From the NCBI GenBank assembly GCA_044229845.1, contig JBGASG010000001.1, positions 320,001 through 384,000 on the forward strand: 64,000 bases of DNA. Direction: 5' to 3'. The translations under genes and the position numbers were made by a program. Under the pieces are notes generated by a model. The model did no database searches. It was not told the origin of the DNA and saw only the letters and a list, made by a program, of their open reading frames with translations. Below, one piece after another: positions 1 through 23,676 of this stretch. Each line of letters opens with the position of its first letter. The first letter of the stretch is position 1. The stretch comes from Candidatus Obscuribacteraceae bacterium (GTDB lineage: Bacteria > Cyanobacteriota > Vampirovibrionia > Obscuribacterales > Obscuribacteraceae).

Positions 1-781
1 ATGCGCGCTTGTCTCGATGGCGGCGGTCACCCTCTTCGGCGTCGCAATTTTCTTTTATGCCTGGGAGGGTGCCATATGCCTTTTGATGGCGGCACCCATT
101 GGTTATGCCATCGCCATGATCGGCTGCTGGCTGGGCTGGAGCATCCAGCGGCGACCGCTGCCGGCGCGCGAGCAAAAGCTGATTATGTCGCTGATTCTGC
201 TGGTCGTGCCTGTGCTGATGGGTGCCGAGTACGCGGAAAAACCGGAGCCGCCACTATGCGCGGTGACAACCACAATTACCGTGCCGGCGCCGCCGGATAA
301 GGTCTGGCCAAACATCATTGCCTTCCCAGAGTTGAAGCCGCCCGACGAGCCGATTTTCTACTCTGGCATTGCCTATCCCGTCGGTGCCACCATCAACGGC
401 AGGGGCGCGGGCGCCGTCCGCAAGTGCCGTTTTTCCACCGGCGCTTTCATAGAACCGATCACTGTCTGGCAGGAGCCAAATCTGCTGAAGTTCTCCGTGA
501 TCGCCCAGCCGCCGCCGATGCGCGAATTCAGCTGGCGCCATGAAATCCAACCGGCCCATTTGCACGGCTATCTAAAAATACATGGCGGGCAATTCCAACT
601 AACACCGGTTGTTCAACCCGACGGATCTGTGTTCACAGAAATCCGCGGCACCACCTGGTACCAAAACCAGATGTTCCCGGCGTCTTACTGGCGGTTCTGG
701 ACAGACTACATCATGCACGAGATTCACTCGCGCGTGCTTCGACACATCAAGTCAGTGACCGTTACTGAGGGTTCTTCTTAA
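1..781 (+). CDS. Membrane protein with SRPBCC/polyketide cyclase-like C-terminal domain (5' partial)
   Basis: Frame is open to the window edge. N-terminal hydrophobic helices, then 'VTTTITVPAPPDKVWPNI', typical of the start of an SRPBCC/START fold. Confidence 0.65.
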   Translation, partial: CALVSMAAVTLFGVAIFFYAWEGAICLLMAAPIGYAIAMIGCWLGWSIQRRPLPAREQKLIMSLILLVVPVLMGAEYAEKPEPPLCAVTTTITVPAPPDKVWPNIIAFPELKPPDEPIFYSGIAYPVGATINGRGAGAVRKCRFSTGAFIEPITVWQEPNLLKFSVIAQPPPMREFSWRHEIQPAHLHGYLKIHGGQFQLTPVVQPDGSVFTEIRGTTWYQNQMFPASYWRFWTDYIMHEIHSRVLRHIKSVTVTEGSS

Positions 782-3428
782 GGAAGGAGAGATCCATCGA
801 CTGGCTGACTACCGAGTTAGCGGCTGGAACCGGCTGCGGCGGTGCGGCTTGTGGCGCGGCAGCGCCCTGAATTCCGCCTTGCAGGCTGTGAGCCGAACCG
901 GCTGCTGACGGCATGGTGGCAGCAGCGGCTGCACCGGAACCGAATTGCTGTTGTACCGGCGCCATATTTTGTGGCGTGGCGACATCGTAAGGAATGGAGC
1001 CGGTCTGTGCCGCAGGCATCGTTTGCATGCCGGCGTCTTGCATGCCCCAGTTGCCTGCAGCTTGTGGTGCCGGACCGCTCATCGGTTCGAGACCACCACC
1101 GCTGGGTTGAGCATAACCACCCTGGCTGTATCCTTGTTGCGGCGCTGCCCAATCGGCTTGCGGTGCGCCTGGTTGCATTCCTTGCTGCATGCCTTGCATC
1201 GGTTGAATACCGACGTTGTTGGAGACCGGTGCCACTTGCGACAAGGCCGGTTGCATGACGCCATTGGCGGCGGTGCCCATCGGCACTTGTGCCAGTCCGG
1301 CGTTGATGCCCGTGGTGCCGCCGGCCGATGCCACTGCTTGCACTTGCGAGCCGGGGATAGTCAGTTGTTGTCCGGGCAGGATCAAGCGCGGGTTGGCGCC
1401 GATGACGTCGCTGTTGGCGCGATAAAGTTCGCCCCAGCGCGAGCCGTCGCCCAGATGTTTTTGCGAGAGATCCCAGAGGTTGTCGCCTGGTTGAACTGTG
1501 ATTTGCTTGCCGGCATCGGCGACAGTGTTCATTGCGCCGTCGGCGCCTGGCAATTTCAGTTCGGTACCCGAGAAAATCAAATCAGGATTTTGACCGATCA
1601 CATCGGAGTTCAATTTGTAGATTTCAGTCCAGCGCGAAGGATCGCCGAGCTGTTTCTCAGCGATGTCCCACAGGCAGTCGCCATGTTGAACGACGTAGTT
1701 GCCGCCCGGCTGATCTGTGACTGCCGGAGCTTGTGTGGCATCGGTTTGCTGAGCTTGCATCGCATCTGACTGAGACGCGTCCGGCTGAGCGGGTTGCGAT
1801 TGGGCCAGTTGCTTGTGCTCGATGTTGACGTGCTTCGGTGCTGCCGCAGGCGCGTGATGTTTCACATCGAGATGCGATGTGGCTGGATGTTTGAACGACT
1901 GCAATGGATGCCCTTGACCGGCGTGCGGAATCTGTCCGATCTTCGCGGCTTGAGCCGGTTGTGCCAGGTTGGTGACAGGCGCTGCGTGGTGTCCGGGCGG
2001 TGGCATCGAAACTCCGGACGAACTGCCGATCGGTTGATGTCCACCGGGAGCCAGCTTGTTCAAGCTGCCGCCGGATTGTTTGATAGTGTCGAAAGAAAGC
2101 TGTTTGGCGCGCAACGGAGTCATGCCGGCGCCGTCGCCCATGCCCATGTTGTTGCCGCCCATGCCCGGGCTGCCGGCTGTGGATGCCGATGGGCTGAAGC
2201 CGCCCATGGGTACGCCGCCGGTGGTGTCGTAAGCAATCAGTTGTTTGCCGCCTAAGGTATCGCTGACGCCACCGGACGGTCCGAGACCGGAGGTGTCGGC
2301 AGCTTGCTGCGGTTGACCCATTGTGTAACCGACATCGGTCGCCGGCGCTTGCGCCACTTGCGAGACCTCGGTTCCGAACGGTGAGCCATTGACGTTGAGA
2401 GCGGACGCCGGAACATTGCCGGTTGCCTGCGGCACCGCATTTGATATCGTCGTCGCCGGTACGTTGGTCGCCGAAGATGCAACGGCTGTCTGCGAACGCA
2501 TCGCGCCGGTCATCTGATCGGTGAAAAGACGCTGGCTGCCTGCCAGGTGTGCAGTGACGCCATTGCTGGAAAGCCCTGGTCCCGAAAGCGTGCCGTCGAT
2601 GCCATGCACGGAGCCGCCGGCAGAGCCGACGCCTTCGAATTGCGGTTTATGCAGATCGAGGTGTCCGGAGACGTTGAGCGAATTGCTGTTTATATGATTG
2701 AAGGAAGTTGCCGTTATGCCGGTGCTGCCGCCGTGCAACATCTGAGCATCGGCTATCGTATGCAAATTGGCATGCATGCCCAAATTGCTGAAGATGGGAG
2801 CATGTCCCGGCAAGAGCGAGAGGCTGATCGGGAAATGTCCGCTGGGGATGGCATGGAACGAAGAAGTAAGTTGTCCCGGCAGAGTATGAGCCAACCCAAT
2901 TACATTGTTGGCGGCGCTGCCGAACGAATTCCATAGATTAGTTGGATTGAAGAGTTCGACCAGATTGCCCGGCATGAAGAAAGCGCCCAACACTTCAAAG
3001 AACGAATTGGCGAGACCGGTAAACCCAGGCATCCGCATTATTAATTGAATCATCGGCGAGATGGCCGCTTCGCTGGCACCAGCGGCACCGGCCAGTGAGG
3101 CGGCCAGAGTCGAACCGCCGCCGCCTGCCGCCGACAGAACCGCGGTTTCGGCGCCCGGAAGTGGACCTGCCGGCACGACTGGAGCGACCGCTGCTGCTTC
3201 GACGCCGGTGACTGCCGGCATCTGGGCGACCATAGCCTGGTTTCCTACCGGCTGGAATATCTGATGAGATGCGCCGATATCGGAGGGACCGGAAAGATGA
3301 GATTGCGCTTCGATATTAAGACCGTTGGCTTCCGCGGGCGCAGCACCGGCACTTTGGGACATTTCGGCGCCGGCTGGGGTTGGTTCTGATGGGCGGAAGA
3401 GGGACACGGTTTTTTCGATACCTTGCAA
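762..3428 (-). CDS. Low-complexity protein with two LysM peptidoglycan-binding domains
   Basis: Two LysM motifs: YVVQHGDCLWDIAEKQLGDPSRWTEIYKLN..NPDLIFSGTELKLP and ITVQPGDNLWDLSQKHLGDGSRWGELYRAN..NPRLILPGQQLTIP. Start uncertain (TTG 3428 or ATG 3362). Confidence 0.85.
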   Translation of the reverse strand: MQGIEKTVSLFRPSEPTPAGAEMSQSAGAAPAEANGLNIEAQSHLSGPSDIGASHQIFQPVGNQAMVAQMPAVTGVEAAAVAPVVPAGPLPGAETAVLSAAGGGGSTLAASLAGAAGASEAAISPMIQLIMRMPGFTGLANSFFEVLGAFFMPGNLVELFNPTNLWNSFGSAANNVIGLAHTLPGQLTSSFHAIPSGHFPISLSLLPGHAPIFSNLGMHANLHTIADAQMLHGGSTGITATSFNHINSNSLNVSGHLDLHKPQFEGVGSAGGSVHGIDGTLSGPGLSSNGVTAHLAGSQRLFTDQMTGAMRSQTAVASSATNVPATTISNAVPQATGNVPASALNVNGSPFGTEVSQVAQAPATDVGYTMGQPQQAADTSGLGPSGGVSDTLGGKQLIAYDTTGGVPMGGFSPSASTAGSPGMGGNNMGMGDGAGMTPLRAKQLSFDTIKQSGGSLNKLAPGGHQPIGSSSGVSMPPPGHHAAPVTNLAQPAQAAKIGQIPHAGQGHPLQSFKHPATSHLDVKHHAPAAAPKHVNIEHKQLAQSQPAQPDASQSDAMQAQQTDATQAPAVTDQPGGNYVVQHGDCLWDIAEKQLGDPSRWTEIYKLNSDVIGQNPDLIFSGTELKLPGADGAMNTVADAGKQITVQPGDNLWDLSQKHLGDGSRWGELYRANSDVIGANPRLILPGQQLTIPGSQVQAVASAGGTTGINAGLAQVPMGTAANGVMQPALSQVAPVSNNVGIQPMQGMQQGMQPGAPQADWAAPQQGYSQGGYAQPSGGGLEPMSGPAPQAAGNWGMQDAGMQTMPAAQTGSIPYDVATPQNMAPVQQQFGSGAAAAATMPSAAGSAHSLQGGIQGAAAPQAAPPQPVPAANSVVSQSMDLSFLKKNPQ

Positions 3429-3523: not shown

Positions 3524-3636
3524 GTTCACGTCCAAAGACATCTAAATTGTGATCGATAACGTATACCCGAGACGGTATTGCAATGAGGTCACGGCAAAAC
3601 GGTAAAATTGAGGGCTGTAAAACGCTGAGGATGCTC

Positions 3637-4875
3637 ATGAGAACACGGCCTATCTTGGTGCTCACACTGGCGGCGTTGACCGCCTCGCTCTCATCGCTGG
3701 CTCAGCCGGGCGGTGATGGGCTGAAAGCCGCAACAGTGGGCTCTCCCGGCTCTCAAATTCCCGCCTCCCCGGCGCCGTCCGTGACCGTCGAGCCGGTCGC
3801 ACCTCCCCTATTTTCGCCACCGCTGGCGCAAGCAGTGGCTGTCTACCGGGCCAACCCGCAATCACAGACGTTTGGCGAGGTATTGCGCATTCTGAAAGCG
3901 ATTCTGGTCAGCGGACCCGGTCAGCACGCCTCATCGCAGGCGATTATCAAAGCCAATCCCGCTCTGGCTGAGCTTGGTCCAAAGGTGGTCGATGCGGTTG
4001 AAGGGCGTATCTGGACCTTCAACAAGGTTACTCACGACAACGAAGCCCTGGTTCAGTGGTTCGAGGTCAAGTCGCAAACAGTGCGTGTGCGCCGCAAGAT
4101 GGTGACCACCCACTCGGTGACCACGCATTTTGAAGGGCTGCGTCTGCCTTCCGGCGTGATTCTGCGCGAAGCCCGCGTAATCGGCTCGCCTAAGCAGCTG
4201 ATTCTCTCCGGAGAGAGGCAAGGAGCGCTGTTCTTGCGCTCATACACACTGCAGGAAGGCGGCGGCTGGCGCGAAGAAGAGGGACGGTTCGCCACGATTC
4301 CATCGTTTCTCACCGACAACGTGTCCGGCAAAGTCACGTTCAAGGGCGCCGACCTGGTTTTCGTGGTTGCTCGCATGCCGCAGAAACAAACGCCAGGCGC
4401 ACCCAATCTGCCCGAAGCCGATTCCTCGACCTACAAGTTCTGGCTGCATTACGTCGATGGAAAATATGCCGTCTACGCAAGAGTGCCCAGTGAAGAGCAG
4501 TACGCAGTCGTCTACTCCTTCTTGCAGGCCATGCAAAATGGTCAGCTTGAGCTGGCCAAGAACTTTCTCGCCGATCCCAAGCTCGTCAGTCTGCCGAAGT
4601 ATGTGGGTCTGACCCGCCCGCCGAGCCAGACTTATAAGGTTGTCGAAATGGCTGTGCCACCGGCCGGACTGCACAGATACCGGCTGGTCACCTTCGGCAA
4701 GAACGACGTCATCTTCGATGTTGGCAGCGTCAGAGGGCGCACAGTTATCAAAAGCATCTTCTTCGCGCCGGCCGACTCCTATCTGCGCGAAATGAAGCAA
4801 TATCTGGCTAATTACGACAAGATTGCGCCGCCCGTGGCCCCGGCTCCCGACAAAGAAGCCGATCACGCGAAATAG
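3637..4875 (+). CDS. Hypothetical exported protein
   Basis: Long ORF (open from 3583). GAGG precedes ATG 3637; MRTRPILVLTLAALTASLSSLA looks like a Sec signal peptide. Confidence 0.75.
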   Translation: MRTRPILVLTLAALTASLSSLAQPGGDGLKAATVGSPGSQIPASPAPSVTVEPVAPPLFSPPLAQAVAVYRANPQSQTFGEVLRILKAILVSGPGQHASSQAIIKANPALAELGPKVVDAVEGRIWTFNKVTHDNEALVQWFEVKSQTVRVRRKMVTTHSVTTHFEGLRLPSGVILREARVIGSPKQLILSGERQGALFLRSYTLQEGGGWREEEGRFATIPSFLTDNVSGKVTFKGADLVFVVARMPQKQTPGAPNLPEADSSTYKFWLHYVDGKYAVYARVPSEEQYAVVYSFLQAMQNGQLELAKNFLADPKLVSLPKYVGLTRPPSQTYKVVEMAVPPAGLHRYRLVTFGKNDVIFDVGSVRGRTVIKSIFFAPADSYLREMKQYLANYDKIAPPVAPAPDKEADHAK

Positions 4876-4931: not shown

Positions 4932-6893
4932 TTGGCGGTTTGCTCGTTGACCAACCTGTCCTCACAGCAGCCTAATTCCGACGTCGGTTCACCGATCGAC
5001 GAAAACGACGGCTTGGCCGAGAGCTCATCCAAAGAGAGCGGTACTTACTACCCGCCCAATCTGTCCTACCGGACGTACTCGTACCGCGAAAATCTCTTTG
5101 CTGAGTTCGACCGTCTGGTGGCCGAAAACAAGCGCTTCGACGGGCTGATTATCGATGTCAGCCAGACTGGCTTTACCTTGCCCATTGACGCGCTGATCAA
5201 GTTCCACGGCTACGGTAAGCGGCTTCTGAAGCCGCAGGCCGTCATGCTCTTCATCAAGGCCGATGGCGCCATCACCCTCACCAAAGACGATCCGGGCGGC
5301 GGACTGACGCTCAATGTCTACGACAGCCCGTTCGGAATATTTGCGCGTTACCCGATGCTCGCCGATTATGTCTGTGCCACCGTATCTGGTATCGACCGTC
5401 GCCGTCTGCGTGGCGGCGGCAGCACGCTCGCTAATCACATTCTTTACACATCAACTCCTGTTTTGACCGCTCGCGGCGTCGAAATGAAACTGTCTTTCGA
5501 CGTGCCCGCACCGCAAAACTGGCTGTTGCAATTGATTGATGACTACTCGACGACCGAAGCCATTATTCGCGCCATGGAAGCCAGACATCATGTGGCTTCC
5601 GATGAAACTTTGCGTATGCTGCAAGAACTGGAAGGCGATGGTGTCATCTATCCGATTTTCTCGCGCATCCAATTTTTGGCCAATTGCTATCACAATCGCA
5701 AGCCGTTTCGTCTGGGGCGCTATATGGTGGCAGCCGGACTGGTGACGCCGTCACAGCTGGAAGAGCTGCTGGAGCTGCAGCAAGATGAAGGCTGGGGAAG
5801 AAACCAGAAAACGTTCCTCGGACTTCTGGCTGTGCGCCGCGGTTATATCAACATGCGCGAGCTGGAGGTATTGCTGCACGATCAGTATCTCTACGGCGGC
5901 TATCACAAGACAGCGGAAGGCGAAAACGAAGAAACGCGCAAACAGACGATCGAATCGATGCGCGATTCGATGATCGGCAGCCTCGGTGCCATCGATAGCG
6001 CCGGTCTTCTGCAGTCTTTTGCCACCGCCAAGAAAACCGGACTGCTGACCGTCGAAAACCGCGACAAAGCGGTCGTGGTGCAGTTCGAAGACGGCAAAGC
6101 TACCAACGCCAAACTGGGCAAGTTGAGCGGCTATTTCGCGCTGGTGGAATTTCTCGTCACTTGGACGGAAGGCATTTTCGTGTTTCGTGACAAAGGCAAC
6201 ACCAAAGATTTCGATCAAAACTCCAAGCTGAACAACGTTCTGGAGAAGATCCTGCTGGACGCGGCGCTGGCTCAGGATAATACCGCCACCATTATCAATG
6301 CCCTGCCGGGCGGACGGAACGTCATATTGGAGCGCGTCTGGAATTTCGATCAACTGTTTCTGGAGGTGCGCCATGAGCCGGCCAAGTATTTCGATGACAC
6401 ACCTATCCCCGACGAAGACAAGCCGCGGGTGCTGCGCATAGCGCAAATGGTAGATGGGTTGACGACGCTGGATGAAGTGATCAAACAAGCTGACGACTGG
6501 CCGACGCACATGGTACTGAAGGCGGTGCAATGGCTGATCGACCATAAACTGATCACGGTGCAGCAAACCAGCTTGTTCCGCCCGCTGACAGTCTTTCAAC
6601 GCGTCGCCATGGAATTGCAGGAACATATTGGTGTCGAACACAATAAAGCAATTCTGGACGCCAGTTTGCAGTATGTGCACGGCGAAACTCCGGCGTTGCA
6701 GCGCTTTAACATCGACCGAGAAGGTCGGGTAAGCGTCAATCTGGCTCAGGTCAAAAGTTCGGGAACGCCCGTGTCGGTGGTACTGATCGAATTGCGTCGC
6801 TGGATGGAAGCGTATCTCGCTTACTGTCGCCGGCAGTGCGATCCGAGTCTGGTGGACAATATTGTCGCCAGTATCGTGCATACGACGATGTAA
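4932..6893 (+). CDS. DUF4388 (PATAN) domain protein with tandem MshEN-like c-di-GMP-binding motif and winged-helix segments
   Basis: RLGRYMVAAGLVTPSQLEELLELQ / FLGLLAVRRGYINMRELEVLLHDQ (MshEN); MIGSLGAIDSAGLLQSFATAKKTGLLTV...WTEGIFVF (DUF4388). TATAAT at 4911-4916 upstream. Confidence 0.75.
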   Translation: MAVCSLTNLSSQQPNSDVGSPIDENDGLAESSSKESGTYYPPNLSYRTYSYRENLFAEFDRLVAENKRFDGLIIDVSQTGFTLPIDALIKFHGYGKRLLKPQAVMLFIKADGAITLTKDDPGGGLTLNVYDSPFGIFARYPMLADYVCATVSGIDRRRLRGGGSTLANHILYTSTPVLTARGVEMKLSFDVPAPQNWLLQLIDDYSTTEAIIRAMEARHHVASDETLRMLQELEGDGVIYPIFSRIQFLANCYHNRKPFRLGRYMVAAGLVTPSQLEELLELQQDEGWGRNQKTFLGLLAVRRGYINMRELEVLLHDQYLYGGYHKTAEGENEETRKQTIESMRDSMIGSLGAIDSAGLLQSFATAKKTGLLTVENRDKAVVVQFEDGKATNAKLGKLSGYFALVEFLVTWTEGIFVFRDKGNTKDFDQNSKLNNVLEKILLDAALAQDNTATIINALPGGRNVILERVWNFDQLFLEVRHEPAKYFDDTPIPDEDKPRVLRIAQMVDGLTTLDEVIKQADDWPTHMVLKAVQWLIDHKLITVQQTSLFRPLTVFQRVAMELQEHIGVEHNKAILDASLQYVHGETPALQRFNIDREGRVSVNLAQVKSSGTPVSVVLIELRRWMEAYLAYCRRQCDPSLVDNIVASIVHTTM

Positions 6894-7006
6894 CTCATTG
6901 AAACCGAGCTGGTCGCGTCCGGCAGCCCATGGGCAACGACTGGCTGTGCTGGTCCCAGCCGGGCGCGGTAAAATTGCCCAACCGGCAACCAGTGGTTCTT
7001 CAATCT

Positions 7007-8518
7007 ATGGAATTTACAAGAGAAACCAACCCCATATCCGCTTGCACTGCAGAAGCCGTGATCATCGGTGTTTTTGCCGATGAGAAACCGGCGGATGCGC
7101 TGGCTAAAGTGGACAGCGAGATGCCCGAAGAAGTTTTGAATCAGGTGAGGGAGGCCGCCGAGTTGGACGGCTTCAAGGGCAAGGCGCGAGAACTGTTGAG
7201 CTGGAAGTCATTCGGCAAGATACCGGCGAAGTCGCTTCTCTTTATCGGTCTCGGTGATGAAAAGGAATACGACCTTTCCACGTCCAGGCGTTATGCGGCA
7301 ATTGCTGCGCGCGGTGTCAACAAAACGGCTAAGTCCGCCTGCCTGGTTCTGCGCCGTCAGGCTCTTTTAGCCGATGTGCAGGCGATGGTGGAAGGCTGGC
7401 ACCTGGCTTCTTACTCGTTCAACAAATACAAATCACAACCCGATGAGGCGAAAGAGAAAAAAGGTGTGACGGCGGTGGCAATCAAAGCCGAAGGCGTTGA
7501 GCATGCCGACTTTGCCGCCGCGATCAGAGCCGGCGATGTGATTGGTGAGGCTGTCAATTTTGCGCGCGACCTGATCGCCGAGCCGGCATCATATATGACA
7601 CCAACGCGGCTGGCCGAAAACGCTGTGGCGCTCGCCGGCGATAATCTGACCGTCGAAGTTCTGGAAGCATCGCAGGCGGAAAATCTCGGCATGGGAGCTT
7701 TCCTTGGTGTCGCCCGTGGTGCTGAGGAGCCGCCCAAGTTCATCTATATGCGTTATACCGGCGGCGCTGACGCCAAGAGAACTGTGGCTATATGCGGAAA
7801 GGGTATTACTTTCGACTCCGGCGGACTGTCGCTGAAGACGGCAGCGGGCATGGAGCATATGAAATACGACATGTCGGGCGCGGCGGTCGTGCTGGCGGTC
7901 ATGAAAGCCATCGCGCAACTCAATCCTCCTTTGAATGTGTTGGGCATTGTGGCGGCAACTGAAAACATGCCCGGGCATCGAGCCCTGCATCCAGGCGATG
8001 TGCTGGTGGCTATGAACGGCAAGACCATCGAAGTCAACAATACCGATGCCGAAGGCCGCTTGATTCTGGCTGACGCGTTGTCTTACGCCGTCCAGCAAAA
8101 CCCCGACGAAATAATTGATATCGCCACTTTGACGGGAGCCGTCGTCACGGCGCTTGGACGAGCGGCGGCGGGCATCATGGGCAGCAACCGCAAGCTCATG
8201 GAAAGTCTGGTGGAAAGCGGTAAATCCGCAGGTGAGAAACTCTGGCCGCTGCCGCTCTTCGATGAATACAAAGACAGCCTCAAGAGTGACATTGCCGACT
8301 TGAAAAACGCCGGCTCCAAGGGCGAAGCATCCACGTCATGCGCCGGTATGTTCTTAAAAGAGTTTGTCGATGGAAAGCCCTGGGCGCATTTGGATATCGC
8401 CGGCCCCGCCTGGATGGACAAAGAGAAAGACGAAATCAATAAAGGCGGCACCGCATTTGGTGTGCGCCTGCTCATGTACTACCTGCTCAACGGCGGCGAA
8501 TCAACCGGAGCGCCGTAG
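7007..8518 (+). CDS. pepA: Leucyl aminopeptidase (M17)
   Basis: GKGITFDSGGLSLK, MKYDMSGAA, NTDAEGRL and WAHLDIAG motifs. ATG 7007 preferred over 6929. Confidence 0.95.
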   Translation: MEFTRETNPISACTAEAVIIGVFADEKPADALAKVDSEMPEEVLNQVREAAELDGFKGKARELLSWKSFGKIPAKSLLFIGLGDEKEYDLSTSRRYAAIAARGVNKTAKSACLVLRRQALLADVQAMVEGWHLASYSFNKYKSQPDEAKEKKGVTAVAIKAEGVEHADFAAAIRAGDVIGEAVNFARDLIAEPASYMTPTRLAENAVALAGDNLTVEVLEASQAENLGMGAFLGVARGAEEPPKFIYMRYTGGADAKRTVAICGKGITFDSGGLSLKTAAGMEHMKYDMSGAAVVLAVMKAIAQLNPPLNVLGIVAATENMPGHRALHPGDVLVAMNGKTIEVNNTDAEGRLILADALSYAVQQNPDEIIDIATLTGAVVTALGRAAAGIMGSNRKLMESLVESGKSAGEKLWPLPLFDEYKDSLKSDIADLKNAGSKGEASTSCAGMFLKEFVDGKPWAHLDIAGPAWMDKEKDEINKGGTAFGVRLLMYYLLNGGESTGAP

Positions 8519-8806
8519 TCTAGCGAGATAACAGCGGTGTGACAGCTGCTGGTAGGTTGGATAGCCGAACTTCGGGATCTGATCTTGGTTATGGCAGAAA
8601 ATGCCGAGCGACCAGACTGCGAACGACAAGGTATGCTCGCTTTCCGGTGGCATCCGTTGGGAGACGATCGTGCCATCATGCTTTCTGAAAATCAGCGAGC
8701 CGCTTACGCCCGGCAATACAATCACGCGGCCGAGAACGTCGGCGGCGCGCTCTCGCTCTGCGGGATCGACGTAGGGTTCTTCGAAAGGGTCGAAACCTCT
8801 TTCCAT
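8501..8806 (-). CDS. Small, apparently C-terminally truncated Roadblock/LC7-like protein
   Basis: LPGVSGSLIFRKHDGTIVSQRMP...AVWSLGIF...KFGYPTYQQL aligns with QPGVVGSVIVGHDGILIASNLP...GIWSLGIY...KLGHNHLHQL of the upstream giant protein; starts 16 nt after its stop. Confidence 0.6.
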   Translation of the reverse strand: MERGFDPFEEPYVDPAERERAADVLGRVIVLPGVSGSLIFRKHDGTIVSQRMPPESEHTLSFAVWSLGIFCHNQDQIPKFGYPTYQQLSHRCYLARLRRSG

Positions 8807-8822
8807 GGCGGCCCTGCCGGAT

Positions 8823-11800
8823 TTATTGAGCGACCAGTTGGGTGATGCTGCGCATCAGCGGAATCAACTTGTCGGTTTCTTGACCGTTGCTGACGGTGAC
8901 CAGAATACCGCCGCCAAAGTCGGCGACGACCAGATAACCGAAGCGGCTGCGTGCCACCAGCTGGTGCAGATGGTTGTGTCCCAGTTTCTTCGTCGAGTTC
9001 AAAGTGTTGACGTAGATACCGAGCGACCAGATGCCCACCGATTCCGGGTCGACATCGGACGGCAGGTTGCTGGCGATCAAGATACCGTCGTGTCCGACGA
9101 TCACCGATCCGACAACTCCCGGTTGCGTGGCGATGTGGTTGAGCAGCTTGTTGATTTCATCGGCTGCTTCCAGAGTCAACACGCGCACCTTTGCATCCGG
9201 CAGGTCCGGCGTGGAAGCCAGGTTGCCGAGCTTATTGAAGTCGGAGCTGTCCAGCAAAAATTTGCCGATCTGGGCAATCTTCCCGGAGGTGGGTTCGGCA
9301 GTCTGGTCGTCTTTAGCTAGGCGACCGATGCCTTCCACTTTCGGTACGTCGGGCGCGCTCGCTTGCTCGACTGCGGCTTCGCGCACGGCTTCGACTGCAC
9401 GAGCGACGTTTAGCGGTTGTCCGTCGGCACCCAGTTGAGGAGCCTGCTGTCCACCGCCCATTTCGCCTGAGAATATGGCTTGCATGGCTGATGCTTGCGG
9501 AGCCGCTGCCGGTTGTTGCGACGGCATTCCCCAGCCACCTTGTTGCGGCTGCATTTGGTCCATGGGAGGTTGTCCGGCGGGAGCTGGATTCCAGCCTGGT
9601 TGTGGCGCCGCTTGTTGCGGAGGCAATTGCATAGCTGGTGGTGCCTTTGAGGCACCATTGGCCGGTGGTGCTACCGGAGGCGGTGCTAGTTGCGGAGGCG
9701 CCGGCGGTGCAAGTTGCGGAGGCGCCGGCGGTGCAGCCGGTTGCTGCGGCGGCACATTCCAGCCTGCCTGTTCGGGCGCAGCCAGTTGAGGCGGTGCGTT
9801 CCAGGTCGGCTGCTCGGGCGCAGGCTGCTGCGGCGGTGGCGTCCAGGCGGCGGGCGGTTCGGGCGCCGCTTGTTGTGGTGGCACATTCCAGCCGGCCTGC
9901 TCGGGAGCCGCTTGTTGCGGTATGTTCCATCCAGACTGCTGTTGTTGCTGTTGAGTTTCCGGACCAGGCACGTTCCACGCGGGTTGTTGCTGCACTGGCG
10001 CTGGAGCTGGAGCTGGCTGCTGTTGCTGTATTTGTTGTATCTGCGGCGGTATGTTCCAGCCACCGGTTTGATCGACGTTTGTCGGCATGCCGGCGAACGG
10101 TGGCGGAGCTTGGGGCGGCACCTGCGGTGGTGGCGCCAGCGGAACCGGAGCTGGTGCAGGAGCTTGCTGCGCCAGTGATGCTTGCGACTGCGGCACCATA
10201 CCTTCTAATCCCGGCGGCGGTTGCATCATCGGCGGTGGCGCTGCTGCTGCGGCGGCTGCTGCCTGTTCGGCTTCGAATTCTTCACGACGCACGGCTGAGG
10301 CCGCCAGCGAATCGCGAATGCCGAGATTTTCGGCAAATATACGATCGATGGCCTGGTCGTCGATTCTGCCCAACAGGCCGGCCGGTTCCGGCGTGGCTGC
10401 CGGCGCTGCCATCGGCGCTTGGGGCGGTGCGGCTGCTGCTTGCGGTTGAGCCATGACACCAGGTGCGGCAGTGGCTGCCGCCGGCATCGCGGGCGCAGCA
10501 AATGCGGACGGAGGAGCTGCCACCGGTTGCGCAACTACTGCCGCCGGTGCGGCGTGGATGCCGTCTTTGGTGCTCAGATTCTCGCGAAATACGGTGTTGA
10601 TCGCCTGATTGTCGATATTGCGGTACAGCCCGCCTGCCGGCGGTGCAGCCGGACCGACTGGTGCCTGTGCCACCGCTTGTGATGGCGCATTCCAACCGCC
10701 CTGCTGTATCTGCTGTTCAGCGGCCGGAGCCCAGCCTCCCTGTGCCGATGCGCTGGGAGTTTCCCAGCCGCCGTTCGGTGGTGCTGCCGCAGCGGCTGCT
10801 GCTGCCTGCGCCAGTTGCTCTTGTGAAACCGCGCCGATTTGCTGGGTTTCCCACTGTTGATTGATTGGTGGTGAGCCGGCGGCTGGTTTTGCCGGTGGCT
10901 GATCGCCGCCCCAGTTGTTGCCCTGTGGTGCTCCCCAGGCGGCTGGTTGCATGCCGTTGCCTGGTTGTGGACCAGGCTGCGGTGCCCCCCAGGCTGGTTG
11001 GGCAGATGGGTCTGGTTGCCCTTGCTGGGCAGCCATCTGCTGGCGACGCAATTTTTCTTGTATTGGTAGATCGTCTTCCGGACCGAATGAAGCCGCTCCT
11101 TGATCGGGTGCGTTCCAGCCGCCACCTTGTGGTTGTCCGGGTTGGCCTGCTGCCGGCGCACCCCAGTTGGGCGCTCCCGGTGCCGGCGGTGCTTCCGGCG
11201 GTGGAGTGGAGCCGGGCAGCGGCTGCGTGCCGGCTGCCATACCTTCCAGTCCGTCGCCGAGTATGGTGTGCAGCCGGTCCATGATATTTTCACCCATGGC
11301 GCTCAATTTGGGCTGGGGCTGCTGTCCGGTGTTGTTAGTTACCGGCTGCGGCGCTGCCGGTTGCAGTGGCGTCACATTCGAAGGCAGCGGCGTGACATTT
11401 GACGGCACCGGCGAATCGGCTGCCGACAGTGGTGTCACATTTGGTGGCAGCTGCGGTTGCGGTCGGGAGCCGGCCGCGGCCGGACCCTTGGCGCCGAGAT
11501 TGTCGTCGACGGCGAATACTTGCCACATGCCAGTCTGAATCTGGTCTTCATCGTGCGGATTCCATTCCACCGGTGTGCCCGGTGCCGGCGCGGCCGGCGC
11601 CGGCGGAGGTGGACTTTGAACAGGCATCGGCATTGGTGAATCGCCGCGCAGTATGGTCGTCGGGGCTGAATTGTCAGAGCTTTGCCAGGCCGGTGGAGCT
11701 CCCGTGGCCGGATTACCCCAACCTGCCGGAGTGGTGCCGGCGGCGCCGACATTAGCATCTGGTGCGGTCGGAGCCCAGCCACCGGTGGCCGGCTGTGGCG

Positions 11801-13724
11801 TTCCCCAGGCACCAGGAGCGGTGCCGGCGGCAGCGGCGCCACCATTATCGCCCCAACCGCCGGTCTGCGGTTGCGGCTGGTCCTGACCTGTCCATGATGT
11901 TCCTGCTTGCGGTGTGCCCCAGTTGTTTGCCGGAGCGGCGCCGTCCTGCGCAGTCACACCCCATTCATTAGATGTCGGTTGCGGTGGACCCCAACCACTT
12001 GATGCTGATGCAGGCTGTGCCGACATGTCGGGCGCAGCCGGTTGCGGTGGTTGTGGCTGTGGTGGTGCTGGCTGCTGAGGTTGCTGCTGAGCTTGCTGCG
12101 CGGCGGCCTGTTGCGCGGCCTTATCGCTGGGGTCGTCCCAGGTCGACCCCCAACCTGCCTGAGGCGGTTGTTCATTTGGTGCATCCCAGCTGGATCCCCA
12201 GCCGGCCGGCTTGGCGCCGCCCACATCGGGAGTGCTCCAGTCGCTAGCTCCAGGCCCGGGCTGATTTCCCCAGGCATTCGGTGCGCCCTGCGGTTGTCCC
12301 CAGTTGTTTGGACCGCCGGTGCCGGGAGCGGGCGGATTGTTCCAGTCGGTGGCGCCGGGTGCTGGCGGCTGTCCCCAGACCGGTGCTTGCGGCACTTCGC
12401 TGGGACCGCCGGCAAAATTAGATGTGTTGCCCCACTCCTGAGCGCTCCCAGTGCCCCATGCCGGTGGCGTTCCCGGTGCTGACGGTTGCGGCTGCTGAGC
12501 GCCGCCCCAGTCTGGTGCACCGCTGGTCTGTGGTTGCTGTGGTGCGCCGCCCCAATCCGGAGCGCCGCTGGTGGCAGGCTGCGGTGGTGGTGTCTGCTGA
12601 GCAGCGCCGCCCCAATCGGGAGCGCCGCTGGTGGCAGGTTGTGGCGGCGGTGTCTGTTGAGAGGCGCCGCCCCAATCGGGAGCGCCGCTGGTGGCAGGTT
12701 GTGGCGGAGGTGTTTGCGGAGATGCGCCGCCCCAATCAGGAGCGCCACTGGTGGCAGGTTGTCCCCAGTTCGATGGCGGTTGTGGATTGGCCCAATCCGG
12801 AGGGCTGCCTGGCTGCGGCGCAAAACCACTGGGAGCTGCCGGCTGTTGCCAGGCCGGTGGTCCGCCTGGTTGCTGACCGCCTTGCGGCCAGGCACCTGGT
12901 TGGGGTTGTTCACCCCATGGTGGTATCGTAGATGGTGGCTGTTCGAATCCGCCCGGTTGATTGCCGAATGCGGGTGGTCCGCCGGCACCAGGCATATTCA
13001 TGCCCGGCGGCATGCCGGTCTGCTGACCGGGACCGCCCGGGAAAGTCGGCGGTGGGTAGCCGCCCCCTTGTTCTGGACCGGGCTCCGACATCTGCTCGCC
13101 GATCTTTTTGCGAATCGACTCGGCGAAAGTCATTTCGCGATCAGCTTGCTGGGCATCGCGGTTAGGGATGTCCATGCCGAACTTGGACCCAAGTCCGAAG
13201 CCGGTTTGCGACTGGTCGACTCCGTCATCGGAGACCATCTTAGATATGTTGCGCAGACGCGTGCTGGTGGCACGCATGTCTTCTTCGGCGTCATCGATCT
13301 TGGCAGGACCGCTGCGGCGAACGTGAGGGAAAGCACTGTTTTTATCGGCATCTTTGCCGGTTGGTCCAGCAGCAGCTGGTGCGCCGGCCGGTGCTTTTTC
13401 TTTGCCGCGCTGCGAGGGACGCTCGCGTTTAGCACCACCGCCGGCCGTGCCGCCGAACATATTTTTGATACCATCCATGAAACCAGGCTTGTCCTGCGGC
13501 AATTCCTGCATGACGCGCCGGGCCAGAGCTTCCAAATTCCCGGGTAAGCATTCCTCGGGAAGTGGAACTTCCGGTGCCGACTGAACTACCTGGTCGATCT
13601 GATGCCGAAAACGCTCGCAACTGTCGCAAGCGTCCAGGTGGGACATCAGCATTTGTTCTTCTTGTGGTTCGAGCTGTCCGTCGAACCACTGTTGAATTAG
13701 AAATCGAAAACGACTGCAATTCAT
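8823..13724 (-). CDS. Giant zf-HC2 anti-sigma / W-G-P-Q-rich disordered region / Roadblock(MglB-like) fusion protein
   Basis: N-term MNC...WFDGQL...HLDACDSC (HxxxCxxC ZAS motif); long low-complexity middle; C-terminal ~115-aa Roadblock/LC7 signature (GVVGSVIVGHDGILIASNL). No obvious TM helix. Confidence 0.85.
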   Translation of the reverse strand: MNCSRFRFLIQQWFDGQLEPQEEQMLMSHLDACDSCERFRHQIDQVVQSAPEVPLPEECLPGNLEALARRVMQELPQDKPGFMDGIKNMFGGTAGGGAKRERPSQRGKEKAPAGAPAAAGPTGKDADKNSAFPHVRRSGPAKIDDAEEDMRATSTRLRNISKMVSDDGVDQSQTGFGLGSKFGMDIPNRDAQQADREMTFAESIRKKIGEQMSEPGPEQGGGYPPPTFPGGPGQQTGMPPGMNMPGAGGPPAFGNQPGGFEQPPSTIPPWGEQPQPGAWPQGGQQPGGPPAWQQPAAPSGFAPQPGSPPDWANPQPPSNWGQPATSGAPDWGGASPQTPPPQPATSGAPDWGGASQQTPPPQPATSGAPDWGGAAQQTPPPQPATSGAPDWGGAPQQPQTSGAPDWGGAQQPQPSAPGTPPAWGTGSAQEWGNTSNFAGGPSEVPQAPVWGQPPAPGATDWNNPPAPGTGGPNNWGQPQGAPNAWGNQPGPGASDWSTPDVGGAKPAGWGSSWDAPNEQPPQAGWGSTWDDPSDKAAQQAAAQQAQQQPQQPAPPQPQPPQPAAPDMSAQPASASSGWGPPQPTSNEWGVTAQDGAAPANNWGTPQAGTSWTGQDQPQPQTGGWGDNGGAAAAGTAPGAWGTPQPATGGWAPTAPDANVGAAGTTPAGWGNPATGAPPAWQSSDNSAPTTILRGDSPMPMPVQSPPPPAPAAPAPGTPVEWNPHDEDQIQTGMWQVFAVDDNLGAKGPAAAGSRPQPQLPPNVTPLSAADSPVPSNVTPLPSNVTPLQPAAPQPVTNNTGQQPQPKLSAMGENIMDRLHTILGDGLEGMAAGTQPLPGSTPPPEAPPAPGAPNWGAPAAGQPGQPQGGGWNAPDQGAASFGPEDDLPIQEKLRRQQMAAQQGQPDPSAQPAWGAPQPGPQPGNGMQPAAWGAPQGNNWGGDQPPAKPAAGSPPINQQWETQQIGAVSQEQLAQAAAAAAAAPPNGGWETPSASAQGGWAPAAEQQIQQGGWNAPSQAVAQAPVGPAAPPAGGLYRNIDNQAINTVFRENLSTKDGIHAAPAAVVAQPVAAPPSAFAAPAMPAAATAAPGVMAQPQAAAAPPQAPMAAPAATPEPAGLLGRIDDQAIDRIFAENLGIRDSLAASAVRREEFEAEQAAAAAAAAPPPMMQPPPGLEGMVPQSQASLAQQAPAPAPVPLAPPPQVPPQAPPPFAGMPTNVDQTGGWNIPPQIQQIQQQQPAPAPAPVQQQPAWNVPGPETQQQQQQSGWNIPQQAAPEQAGWNVPPQQAAPEPPAAWTPPPQQPAPEQPTWNAPPQLAAPEQAGWNVPPQQPAAPPAPPQLAPPAPPQLAPPPVAPPANGASKAPPAMQLPPQQAAPQPGWNPAPAGQPPMDQMQPQQGGWGMPSQQPAAAPQASAMQAIFSGEMGGGQQAPQLGADGQPLNVARAVEAVREAAVEQASAPDVPKVEGIGRLAKDDQTAEPTSGKIAQIGKFLLDSSDFNKLGNLASTPDLPDAKVRVLTLEAADEINKLLNHIATQPGVVGSVIVGHDGILIASNLPSDVDPESVGIWSLGIYVNTLNSTKKLGHNHLHQLVARSRFGYLVVADFGGGILVTVSNGQETDKLIPLMRSITQLVAQ
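12499..12761 (-). repeat. Intragenic 60-bp tandem repeat (QPATSGAPDWGGAxxQTPPP, ~3.6 copies plus one shorter copy)
   Basis: Near-identical consecutive 60-nt lines at 12541, 12601, 12661 and 12721. Confidence 0.9.
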
Positions 13725-13742
13725 GTGAGTGCCTCTATGCCT

Positions 13743-14318
13743 TTAACCCCGCCCCAGACATTTGATTACCTGCACTCGGGAACGGTGCAGCCAGGCCATC
13801 ACGTTATCTGGATTTTGATTGAGTACGTCGACAACTTGATCGAATGAGAGCCCGAGCTGGTGCCGAAGCACGAAAGCTCGTTTTTGCTCGTCACTGAGCG
13901 AGTTGATGCAACGCTTAACGCGTTGCGTGCCGAGGATTACCGTTGTTTCCCAGTCCATCTGGGCAGACCCGTCGGCAGTCGGATCTGTCTGTGGTGAGCG
14001 CGGGGGAGGCGCAGAATTATTTTGATGATATTCGACGATGGCGTCGACGATGTAATCAGAAAGCCAGTCCCAAACGGCTTTGCCGCTCAGCTGCTTGACG
14101 TTCATAGATCGCAATGCAGAGCATGCATTGCCGAAAGCTGCGATGGTAAGTTGAGAAGCCAGCTCGGTGTCGCCTGTCGAAATCAGTGCGATAGCGTAGA
14201 AGCGTTCCTGGTTTTGCCAGACGAATTCTCCCAGTGCCTGCTTGTTGCCCTTTTTGACTTCGAGCAAAATATTGGCTGCTGCTACGTCGGATATGTTTTT
14301 CGATGGTAAGAGAGGCAT
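13743..14318 (-). CDS. ECF-family sigma-70 factor (divergent)
   Basis: KKGNKQALGEFVWQNQERFYAIA (region 2); INSLSDEQKRAFVLRHQLGLSFDQVVDVLNQNPDNVMAWLHRSR (region 4). Immediately upstream of a ZAS anti-sigma. Confidence 0.8.
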   Translation of the reverse strand: MPLLPSKNISDVAAANILLEVKKGNKQALGEFVWQNQERFYAIALISTGDTELASQLTIAAFGNACSALRSMNVKQLSGKAVWDWLSDYIVDAIVEYHQNNSAPPPRSPQTDPTADGSAQMDWETTVILGTQRVKRCINSLSDEQKRAFVLRHQLGLSFDQVVDVLNQNPDNVMAWLHRSRVQVIKCLGRG

Positions 14319-14554
14319 CTTTTATCGCCGATAAAAAAGAGATTTGAAAAGGGTGGGTGTGCCCCAAACAGAAGAGCTGGCACGCCAAGCCAGCACGCAC
14401 GAGGACCTCTAAAGTTTACATAAAACCGCCAAAAACGTCACCCAGGGACAGTTGTTTTGCTCCGTCACAATCCTCCGCTCCGCGTGAGCAAAGCCGGTAC
14501 CATTTAAAACGAGTTTCCCAAAAGACAGCCGAGACGGCTCTACGCTCCATACTT

Positions 14555-15355
14555 ATGCCCAAAAAACCCAACTTTATCTTGGAAGTAACAATTCGCGTGT
14601 CGGAAGCTTATACTCTCGACACAGTCGCCCGCTCACCGCGCATGTTCAAGCCCAAAGATGTCTTGAACGCCTGTGACAACCTGTGTGTGGAGTTAAAATC
14701 CGGGCCGGCGCCGCAATTTATTCAGCCATTCGCTGAGTGGATATTGCGCGACTATTTCGCGCTGGCTCATCGCACTGGTCTATACAATCGGCAAAAGAGC
14801 CTCTGGGAGTCTATTTCCAAAATCGCACGGGTGGAGATTTCGCAAAAAACTGTTGGCATCTTCAAGCGCGAACCGGTGCCGATTTATGAGTTCATATTTC
14901 AGGACACCAAGCAAAAACCGCTGATTTTTGGACTGGTTGTGGCGGGAGATCCCCGCCCCGGCGAACCGATATCGGACAAGAGCGATTTCGTCGGCGTATT
15001 CAAGAACTTTCTGGCTGATTCGCGGCGAATGACCACAATCACCGGAATGTTTGTCTGCTTTGCAATCGAGCCGTTGCCGGAGGCCGTTCTCAAGTTTCTC
15101 AAGAAGCAGACCGATTCCGCACATCCTGTCGGGCGGTACGAGGCGCTGATCGAAGGCTACGCCGGGCCGGTCAACCTGGTGTCTTGCCGGCTGCCTGCCG
15201 GAACCCGTGATGAGCTGCCGCAATTGGATATGTCACCGCAGTCGCATCCGGAAGAGACAGATGCAGTCGAAAACGAGCCGCCGAAAGCCGAGCCCATCGA
15301 GTTCGAGCTGATTTACCCCGACCTTTCTCGCAAACCTGCCGGACTTACCTTGTAA
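14555..15355 (+). CDS. Hypothetical protein
   Basis: Long ORF (open from 14357) filling the gap, with globular composition. Start uncertain (14555 or 14642). Confidence 0.65.
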   Translation: MPKKPNFILEVTIRVSEAYTLDTVARSPRMFKPKDVLNACDNLCVELKSGPAPQFIQPFAEWILRDYFALAHRTGLYNRQKSLWESISKIARVEISQKTVGIFKREPVPIYEFIFQDTKQKPLIFGLVVAGDPRPGEPISDKSDFVGVFKNFLADSRRMTTITGMFVCFAIEPLPEAVLKFLKKQTDSAHPVGRYEALIEGYAGPVNLVSCRLPAGTRDELPQLDMSPQSHPEETDAVENEPPKAEPIEFELIYPDLSRKPAGLTL

Positions 15356-18465: not shown

Positions 18466-19428
18466 CTAGTCTTCGAGGTAGCCGGCCAGTTTTGACGACC
18501 AGGCGGGCTGCCGCAGCTTGCGGAAGGCTTTGTGTTCGATCTGGCGAACGCGTTCGCGAGTGATGTTGAAAAGGCGCCCAACTTCTTCGAGAGTGCGTTG
18601 GCGACCGTCTTCCAGACCATATCTCAGGTGCATGATATCGCGTTCGCGCGGCGTCAACTGGCTGAGCATGCGGTTAAGGTCTTGACGCATCAATTCTTCT
18701 TCGGTGTTGGCATCGGGCCGCGCCGATTCGTTGTCTTCGATCAGATCGCCCAGATACGTCTCTTCATCGCGATTGAGCGGCATCTCCATGGAGATCGGCT
18801 CGCGATCGGCAGCGATAATTTCCTGCACTTTCGCCACCGAAAGGTCCATTTCCTTAGCCAGTTCTTGCTCGGTCGGCTTGCGTCCGAGTTCTTGAGCCAT
18901 GCGGGCGCTGGTCTTCTTCATCTTGTTGATGGATTCGACCATGTGCACCGGCACGCGAATGGTTCGTGATTTATCTGCCAGACCGCGGCTGATCGCCTGG
19001 CGAATCCACCAGGTAGCGTAGGTCGAGAACTTGAAACCCTTGGTGTGATCGAACTTTTCAGCCGCTCGAATCAGTCCCAGGTTGCCTTCCTGAATCAAAT
19101 CCTGGAAGGGTAATCCGCGGTTGACATATTTCTTGGCGATCGAGATAACCAGGCGCAAGTTAGCCTGAATCAGCTTCTTCTTCGCTTCGCCGTCACCTTT
19201 TGCAATTCTGCGGGCCAGTTCGATCTCTTCATCCGGACGAATCATTTTGACGCGTCCGATTTCACGCAGATACAGTCTCACTGAGTCTTCTGTGAAGCCG
19301 TCTTCTTTCCCCGTCGGGCGTTGAGTTTCCTCATCATCCGACGACATGTTGTCTTCATCCTGATCGAAGAGTTGAACCTCTGACGACCAGTCTTCAGATA
19401 GATCTTCGCTGAGTCTCGAAGAAGCCAA
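18466..19428 (-). CDS. RpoD/SigA-family sigma-70 factor (group 1/2, short region 1.1)
   Basis: [62 protein letters not shown] 9 nt before the TTG start. Confidence 0.95.
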
Positions 19429-23673: not shown

Positions 23674-23676
23674 CGC

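Follow-up and report, generated by a model that had tools for sequence, protein, structure and literature searches.

What is the role of a sigma-like protein whose co-encoded anti-sigma domain is the head of a giant protein ending in a Roadblock domain? This question is raised by a minus-strand gene unit found in a 64,000-nt stretch (the window) of a Candidatus Obscuribacteraceae genome. We coded this genome G000, its relatives G..., their loci L..., library proteins P... and contigs C..., G001 being a genome of the same genus. The unit begins with a gene for a 191-aa protein resembling the extracytoplasmic function (ECF) sigma factors (13743-14318), followed by the gene for a 1633-aa protein (8823-13724), here called the scaffold, and by an open reading frame (ORF) of 101 aa (8501-8806), the gaps being 18 and 16 nt. 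The reading that we favour, at a confidence somewhat short of even, is that the scaffold is a soluble multivalent protein that docks on an MglA/Roadblock network and holds the sigma-like protein as a pseudo-sigma client. Papers are cited below by their identifiers, from parts of their text.

The coordinates of the three ORFs given in a first-pass annotation were confirmed, as was its description of the 1633-aa protein as one with a zinc anti-sigma (ZAS) N-terminus, a low-complexity middle, a C-terminal Roadblock and no transmembrane (TM) helix. The ZAS domain (residues 1-80; 13485-13724) carries the motif C-x25-HxxxCxxC and matches zf-HC2 at residues 3-36 with 23.8 bits, and the Roadblock/LC7 domain (8826-9173) matches Robl_LC7 at residues 1525-1611 with 28.3 bits, both narrowly above their cut-offs (22.2 and 23, respectively). 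Since the best 19-residue hydropathy is 1.38, the scaffold has no TM helix. Pro, Ala, Gly and Gln make up 918 of its 1633 residues, and 50 of its 52 Trp lie in a P/A/Q/G-rich low-complexity linker of about 1350 aa (residues ~90-1440; 9405-13457). Between the linker and the Roadblock there is a conserved pre-Roadblock segment of the type GxGRL ... GxIxxIGKFLLD (9174-9350), which has a low predicted local distance difference test (pLDDT) score if folded alone.

The two-gene core, i.e., the sigma-like gene and the scaffold gene, is real and order-wide in Candidatus Obscuribacterales, uncultured kin of the cyanobacteria. We detected strong orthologues of the sigma-like gene in 22 of 24 genomes of the same family, in 3/3 other genomes of the same order and in 0/13 genomes outside the order, and a phylum sample (n=201) showed the gene only in G000, together with one weak match; the named relatives are mostly Ca. 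Obscuribacterales or Melainabacteria. The search for the same architecture and synteny in relatives, proposed by the first-pass annotation, was successful: a ZAS gene lies directly behind the sigma-like gene in 20/20 fetched loci. In 15 of these a single ORF runs from the ZAS to the Roadblock, 2 are split, and in the other 3 the contig ends within the locus. Nine further complete fusions were found, the overall length range being 744-1734 aa, and in a second sample the Roadblock end of the scaffold is present in 24 of 25 Obscuribacterales genomes. One genome, G017, contains neither the sigma-like gene, nor the ZAS, nor the tail, nor an orthologue of the neighbouring PATAN gene (see below); since this neighbour is gone too, the lack of the unit may reflect a block deletion or an assembly gap.

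That the fusion is an artefact of assembly or ORF prediction is scarcely credible, and for the two-gene core it is refuted. It is true that 2/20 loci of relatives are split and that no read contig spans the whole gene, but other assemblies show the complete fusion as a single ORF 24 times, and a metagenome library contains proteins that run full length from the ZAS to the Roadblock. In the window, three DNA runs, each from a different study, have contigs that give depth in 30/30 bins between 7800 and 14600, with no base change or indel listed; no single contig spans this whole stretch, and those runs may be the source of the assembled DNA. RNA contigs from one metatranscriptome lie over 23/30 bins, which shows neither strand nor transcription.

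The unit belongs to none of the known systems tested, being built from known modules, and its two-gene architecture is apparently undescribed, as the first-pass annotation had supposed. The literature searched contains no description of it, no system that joins an anti-sigma domain with a Roadblock/MglA polarity module, although the parts themselves are known, and no report linking Obscuribacterales, Melainabacteria, MglA and polarity. In the main text of the ECF reclassification, as far as it was consulted (PMC7826278), neither "roadblock" nor "Melainabacteria" occurs.

The third ORF is not part of the conserved unit. It had been proposed as a second Roadblock partner in a three-gene system, and this proposal was rejected: the 101-aa ORF is a truncated, lineage-specific duplicate without a Pfam match, absent from G001, although the sigma-like protein of that genome is 100% identical, and from 24 of the 27 other loci with downstream sequence (a second Roadblock gene lies behind the scaffold in G007, G016 and G097). 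It covers only columns 89-156 of the Roadblock profile (hhalign 95.8%), approximately the first two-thirds, without the last strands and helix, and overlaps by 18 nt the end of the convergent pepA gene, which encodes a leucyl aminopeptidase (M17; 6929-8518, plus strand); contigs of 3 DNA runs cross this junction. A tree of 55 Roadblocks places the extra copies among the scaffold domains and gives the 101-aa ORF a very long branch of 3.1, its place being unsure. The most suitable reading of this ORF is a local duplicate in decay, fast-evolving and probably a remnant.

Can the 191-aa protein work as a sigma factor? Its predicted model (pLDDT 81.6) contains sigma-2 and sigma-4 folds and no sigma-3. 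The sigma-2 fold aligns with region 2 of sigmaE (Z 13.7, root-mean-square deviation (rmsd) 2.0, 92 aligned residues) and lacks the signature residues; the sigma-4 fold aligns with region 4 of SigR (Z 9.2). Sigma70_r4_2 is the only family match, and the cut-off of Sigma70_r2 is passed by 0/20 members of the family versus 6/6 canonical ECFs of G000, which we used as the comparison set. The core-binding residues of region 2.2 comprise the DAED motif and the Gln-Glu behind it, the Gln having a role in core RNA polymerase binding. In the best 120 of 210 homologues, with residues mapped to sigmaE, this residue (Gln59) occurs in 0, whereas it is present, together with the Asn discussed next and acidic 60, in 6/6 canonical ECFs; acidic residues occur at position 60 in 5, at 53 in 4 and at 56 in 52 homologues. 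Regarding the positions involved in melting, Asn92 (sigmaE N80) is found in 1/120, with Asp/Glu in 101/120, and a basic residue at 88 (sigmaE R76) in 5/120; both sigmaE residues matter for melting (PMC6648896). The mean net charge of region 2.3-2.4 is -2.8 versus 0 to +2. The best-conserved parts of the protein are the invariant WETT linker (0.82) and the C-terminal helix (0.91).

Because the core-binding and -10 melting residues of sigma-2 are lost, the sigma-like protein is most probably unable to function as an ordinary ECF sigma. The first-pass annotation had called it an ECF sigma, which holds for the sigma-2/sigma-4 fold and the Sigma70_r4_2 match and fails for Sigma70_r2 and the sigma-2 signature; that it is an ordinary ECF and starts transcription upon release is doubtful, given the degenerate sigma-2.

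On the other side of the balance, the control set for these residues is small (six ECFs, four of them close paralogues), and sigma-4 looks intact: Arg179 is found in 120/120 homologues (sigmaE R176), Arg152 in 119 (R149), F/Y/H178 in 119 (F175) and R/K/M174, mostly Met, in 109 (R171). Trp85 (sigmaE W73) is also invariant (120/120). Since the -35 contacts of sigma-4 and Trp85 are kept, the protein may still be a real sigma. The sole contact that is mostly changed is the equivalent of sigmaE S172 (Ser in 21/120). We had considered sigma-4 as a sign of lost DNA binding, and this was dropped because Met at the R171 position also occurs in the functional SigR and SigH (PMC1540707).

Two further features might license such a sigma. 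Firstly, Cys137 and Cys187 are present in 120/120 and 119/120 homologues, respectively, and absent from the six control ECFs. The structural alignment with SigK ends in register (model 189 = chain 185), so that Cys187 corresponds to SigK Cys183, and Cys137 is equated with the first Cys of SigK by spacing only. The SigK Cys133/Cys183 disulfide controls anti-sigma binding and is found in <2% of other ECF families (PMC7509140). The unit thus resembles SigK-RskA (ECF18/19) in a Cys pair 50 residues apart in sigma-4 and in the C-terminal register, but RskA is membrane-bound and has no Roadblock fusion, and SigK is an active sigma. Secondly, position 55, the third of the DAED-equivalent, shows a phosphosite-like alternation (Ser/Thr 63, Asp/Glu 30 of 120) that matches the residue pattern of the phosphosite of EcfP, a sigma that is intrinsically inactive through DAED loss (PMC8999054). 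ECF43 (EcfP/EcfK) and our protein share the lost DAED and a Ser/Thr or acidic third position (93/120); in contrast to ECF43, the protein is coupled to an anti-sigma and not to an adjacent kinase, the nearest being 8 kb away, and Gln and Asn are lost as well.

These features would suit a conditional true sigma, i.e., a dormant ECF held at a polarity hub, in which transcription would start, according to MglA or pole state, once the protein is released and either phosphorylated near the lost DAED or reduced at its cysteine pair. We regard this reading, which comes near to the model of the first-pass annotation, as unlikely but entirely credible, considering the intact sigma-4 contacts, the position 55 pattern, the near-invariant cysteines and the presence of two Ser/Thr kinase genes 8 kb off. 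Nevertheless, a single phosphate would make up neither for the missing Gln59 and Asn92 nor for the acidic region 2.3-2.4; the canonical ECFs of G000 also carry Ser or Ala at 55; and the upstream region shows neither ECF-type enrichment nor a motif with a regulon, as follows.

A promoter-like element (14413-14425, minus strand; consensus AT(T/C)A(T/G)GTA(A/C)ACT) is conserved upstream of the sigma-like gene. Its core GTA[AC]ACT is found in 27/36 upstream regions, versus a shuffle mean of 1.3 and a maximum of 6, and resembles a -10 with an upstream extension, with no conserved -35. An ECF-type -35/-10 pair is not enriched (3/36 versus a shuffle maximum of 7), and an autoregulatory promoter of ECF type was rejected on this count. 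At >=14 bits the motif occurs at 2 places in the genome, the second one inside a 689-aa gyrB-like ORF, and the genome-wide scan revealed no regulon for it. A motility-regulon box, such as the J-box of SigJ (PMC6495340), was discarded too, since 0/21 mglA upstream regions reach 12 bits and the 20 pilB loci hold one site of >=13 bits.

What would the head of the scaffold bind? Its profile matches the RsiW structure 5wuq_C (E 7.3e-7), and Pfam and NCBIfam find only ZAS at the N-terminus, with no receiver domain. The best structural/profile matches are SigW for the sigma-like protein and RsiW for the ZAS, which are a cognate pair, and the strict one-to-one gene coupling also argues for a private sigma/ZAS pair. 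SigW-RsiW of B. subtilis, SigR-RsrA and RpoE-ChrR likewise consist of a co-encoded ECF fold and an N-terminal HxxxCxxC anti-sigma. Compared with SigW-RsiW and the soluble ZAS pairs, the scaffold lacks a TM helix, reaches 744-1734 aa, ends in a Roadblock and pairs with a protein devoid of the sigma-2 signature. Another difference is that the full zinc motif, C/H-x(23-26)-HxxxCxxC with its four ligands, is kept in 17/20 orthologues and lost in 3/20; since these three retain the remainder of the ZAS domain intact, the zinc seems to play a structural role and to be dispensable.

The sigma-like protein may be compared with PhyR-NepR-EcfG, as it has the shape of a sigma and could bind an anti-sigma yet not transcribe. 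Partner switching of this kind, in which the protein would be a decoy for titrating ZAS anti-sigmas, or some other ECF would be captured by the scaffold, so that a canonical sigma is freed or trapped, is very improbable. In its favour, there are precedents for sigma mimicry (PMC4598750), G000 encodes two ZAS anti-sigmas besides the scaffold as well as six canonical ECFs, and ZAS-Roadblock paralogues without a sigma neighbour exist (3/3 such loci). However, PhyR_sigma2 is matched by none of 20 members, the 191-aa protein stands alone without a receiver and with its sigma-4 contacts kept, the anti-sigma is a ZAS and not NepR, and the coupling of each sigma-like gene to its own ZAS gene is strict. 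The paralogues just mentioned are shorter, with a ZAS-like-linker-Roadblock order (L100:4877-6826, L101:6020-8101 and L104:6192-7004), and some have no zinc ligands.

The linker has a conserved composition and hardly any conserved sequence across orthologues, apart from short islands. Its 50 Trp are evenly spaced and 35 are in WG/GW pairs; Gly follows Trp 5.6-fold above chance, and Trp-Trp gaps of <=3 residues are observed 2 times in 508, versus a shuffle mean of 64 and a minimum of 46. Evenly spaced "stickers" are a concept used to explain the clustering of disordered proteins, and the Trp spacing fits a linker of this type; an Argonaute-hook role of the WG/GW repeats was also considered. The linker also contains two copies of an acidic amphipathic motif of the type GGL..IDxxAIxxxF (10575-10634 and 10317-10382), which is present in 15/15 orthologues and in a paralogue of G000 with a TM region and a double Roadblock. 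The polar scaffold PopZ has a binding head, an acidic/Pro-rich disordered linker and an oligomerising tail, which makes it similar in layout only, the scaffold being about ten times longer and its linker Trp-rich. Also by layout, the scaffold can be likened to RomR of Myxococcus xanthus, whose folded head precedes a disordered stretch and an acidic helical part, the latter binding the Roadblock protein MglC (PMC10329633).

The Roadblock domain at the end of the scaffold adopts a two-helix Roadblock fold that aligns with MglB 6hjm (Z 14.4, rmsd 2.2, 115 aligned), with an Asgard Roadblock (Z 16.6, rmsd 1.6, 111 aligned) and, at lower likeness, with MglC (Z 10.2). The sequence searches of solved structures listed neither MglB/MglC nor SigK, which were found by fold comparison alone. 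As the first-pass annotation had suggested looking for them, MglA-like GTPases were sought in G000 and two were found (C6:251018-251596 and C3:233074-233652), one of them matching M. xanthus MglA with E 2e-80. Neither adjoins a Roadblock gene, as these lie on C1, C7 and C8; orphans are known (PMC4316618). The MglA/MglB/MglC/RomR system of M. xanthus shares with these genomes a group-1 type MglA and the Roadblock fold; the differences are that here mglA is uncoupled from Roadblock genes, the head is an anti-sigma instead of a receiver, and acidic helices and Roadblock are in one chain. No sigma involvement is seen in the consulted parts of the Myxococcus sources. In most of the order, the C6 MglA shows 86-96% identity, and the C3 MglA lies between kinase-like and response-regulator-like genes.

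We also predicted the complex of a Roadblock dimer with MglA and GTP/Mg, using a mark reached by 116/157 solved and 2/215 mismatched pairs. The score was 0.55 versus 0.01 for the best control, with runs sharing at least 78% of contacts and a partner pLDDT of 88; scores <=0.60 came from 18/157 solved pairs and from both passing mismatches, and the prediction may echo solved MglA-MglB structures. It lends weak support to binding of MglA-GTP by the Roadblock dimer. G000 also has a stand-alone Roadblock of 123 aa (C7:22318-22689; L097:2319-2690), with small residues in helix 2 and similar short ORFs in most genomes of the order, which would be the best candidate for the MglB role. The paralogue with a TM region (G000:C8:416493-419144; L096:2494-5145) is a membrane protein with two acidic helix/pre-Roadblock/Roadblock copies, located behind pheST and conserved in the order.

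Is the tail linked to polarity or pili elsewhere? The Roadblock module and MglA occur in the same 28 of 121 genomes of the class, and MglA is found in 5/5 outgroup genomes tested, i.e., those with a pil-operon homologue. Strong tail matches exist in 33 genomes of the phylum outside the order. A tail homologue lies upstream of pilB-pilT-pilC in 6/7 fetched loci and in 2/2 of class family f3 (8/9 altogether), and four of these pil-linked homologues follow pheST; the pre-Roadblock segment is common to the scaffold and its pil-operon homologues throughout the phylum. In relatives outside Obscuribacterales, namely G028:C2 (L098:5959-12337), G034 (L099), L125 and L127-L131, the first gene of the pilB-pilT-pilC operon is of linker-Roadblock type, often behind pheST and sometimes followed by a group-3-like sigma, and this pilus-operon component is apparently undescribed.

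In addition, the neighbour of the scaffold in 12/17 loci with downstream sequence is PATAN/MshEN-like. In the window it is a 653-aa protein (4932-6893, plus strand) with an MshEN-like cyclic di-GMP motif and a DUF4388 (PATAN) domain. PATAN genes are known near MglA/MglB (PMC4316618), and PATAN domains bind PilB1 (bioRxiv 2021.06.11.447907). A 30%-identical paralogue of this neighbour is found at G000:C1:3867-5780. Moreover, among the best 150 of 662 library matches the tail carries ZAS heads in 44 and TM heads in 13, the rest including many fragments, and it is also fused to Clp_N, TPR-like and zinc-ribbon (double) heads (P0054, P0055, P0095 and P0096). Fusion to so many different heads would be expected of a targeting module.

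Altogether, the architecture and the neighbours suggest a link between gene-regulation parts and the polarity machinery. In the favoured scaffold model, the C-terminal tail would dock on the MglA/Roadblock network, giving the protein a polar localisation; the WG-type evenly spaced stickers of the linker would make many copies cluster; and the ZAS head would hold the co-encoded sigma-like protein. The latter would be a pseudo-sigma, serving the hub as client or cap and incapable of transcription on its own, and perhaps redox-tuned by the Cys137/Cys187 pair.

Several observations weigh against this model. Even Trp spacing can also come from tandem-repeat growth, and linker length and Trp number vary widely (8-50 Trp). 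The Roadblock sequence profile gives no MglB or MglC match. The co-distribution with MglA is weak because related genomes are not independent: few separate events lie behind it, and the negative genomes are small (about 1.6-3.1 Mb). Inside Obscuribacterales, a Roadblock gene lies beside pilB in 0/20 fetched loci, and pilB was not found in G000, in G001 or in three f2 genomes that carry the sigma-like gene, while it is full-length in 27/28 sampled family members; G017, in turn, has MglA and pilB without the unit.

Part of these data would agree with a simpler view, in which the unit is a soluble ZAS/sigma pair whose Roadblock merely dimerises the protein and is unconnected with MglA or the pole. 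Roadblocks serve as dimerisation domains in general, the highest fold likeness is to Asgard and Streptomyces Roadblocks, with MglB at about the same level, and no linkage of the unit to mglA or pil genes is seen within the order. We consider this view improbable, however, as it leaves unexplained the shared pre-Roadblock motifs, the PATAN/MshEN neighbour and the reuse of the tail on many heads.

A bolder extension of the scaffold model, distinctly unlikely in our opinion, is that an anti-sigma was grafted onto a pilus-operon Roadblock factor, creating a GTPase-gated polar condensate with Trp stickers that would hold either a sigma licensed by redox state or phosphorylation or a pseudo-sigma standing alone, and so wire polarity to transcription; the same Ragulator-like multi-Roadblock hub would recruit Clp_N, TPR-like, zinc-ribbon and membrane heads. 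If the contacts hold, the unit would physically and directly connect a Ras-like polarity switch of bacteria with a protein of sigma fold, and it would represent either a stand-alone pseudo-sigma or a new way of licensing a sigma. The presence of a Myxococcus-type MglA and a pil-operon Roadblock in non-photosynthetic Cyanobacteriota bears on the evolution of polarity control before cyanobacterial phototaxis.

Some additional observations concern pili and GTPases. G000 has a lone pilT near a group-3-like sigma, no detectable pilB or pilC, and two Tad-like loci, labelled by inspection (C16:25059-27267; C19:379077-386095; C22:232082-239113); a prepilin regular expression had no match in the genome. 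A second PilB-like gene is in tandem upstream of pilB in 5/20 fetched order loci (L175, L180, L181, L185 and L187). In other families of the phylum (L133-L136), the genes for a small Roadblock, a GTPase of the ATP_bind_1 type and a DUF4388 protein are compactly clustered, and the gene next to them in three of these loci is presumably globin-like. In G179 (C19:45642-46205), an MglA-like domain lies within a 411-aa open frame, a possible fusion.

Around the unit, a divergent gene of 266 aa (14555-15355, plus strand) stands beside the sigma-like gene in most loci. It has no family match, atlas searches yielded no additional family, and its sole lead is a sub-threshold restriction-endonuclease-like one. 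The window also encodes an 888-aa low-complexity protein with two LysM domains (762-3428, minus strand), a 430-aa signal-peptide-like protein that is syntenic in many relatives (3583-4875, plus strand) and, 4-11 kb away from the unit, a sigma-70 factor with four regions as well as two Ser/Thr kinases in tandem (18466-19428 and 22168-25410).

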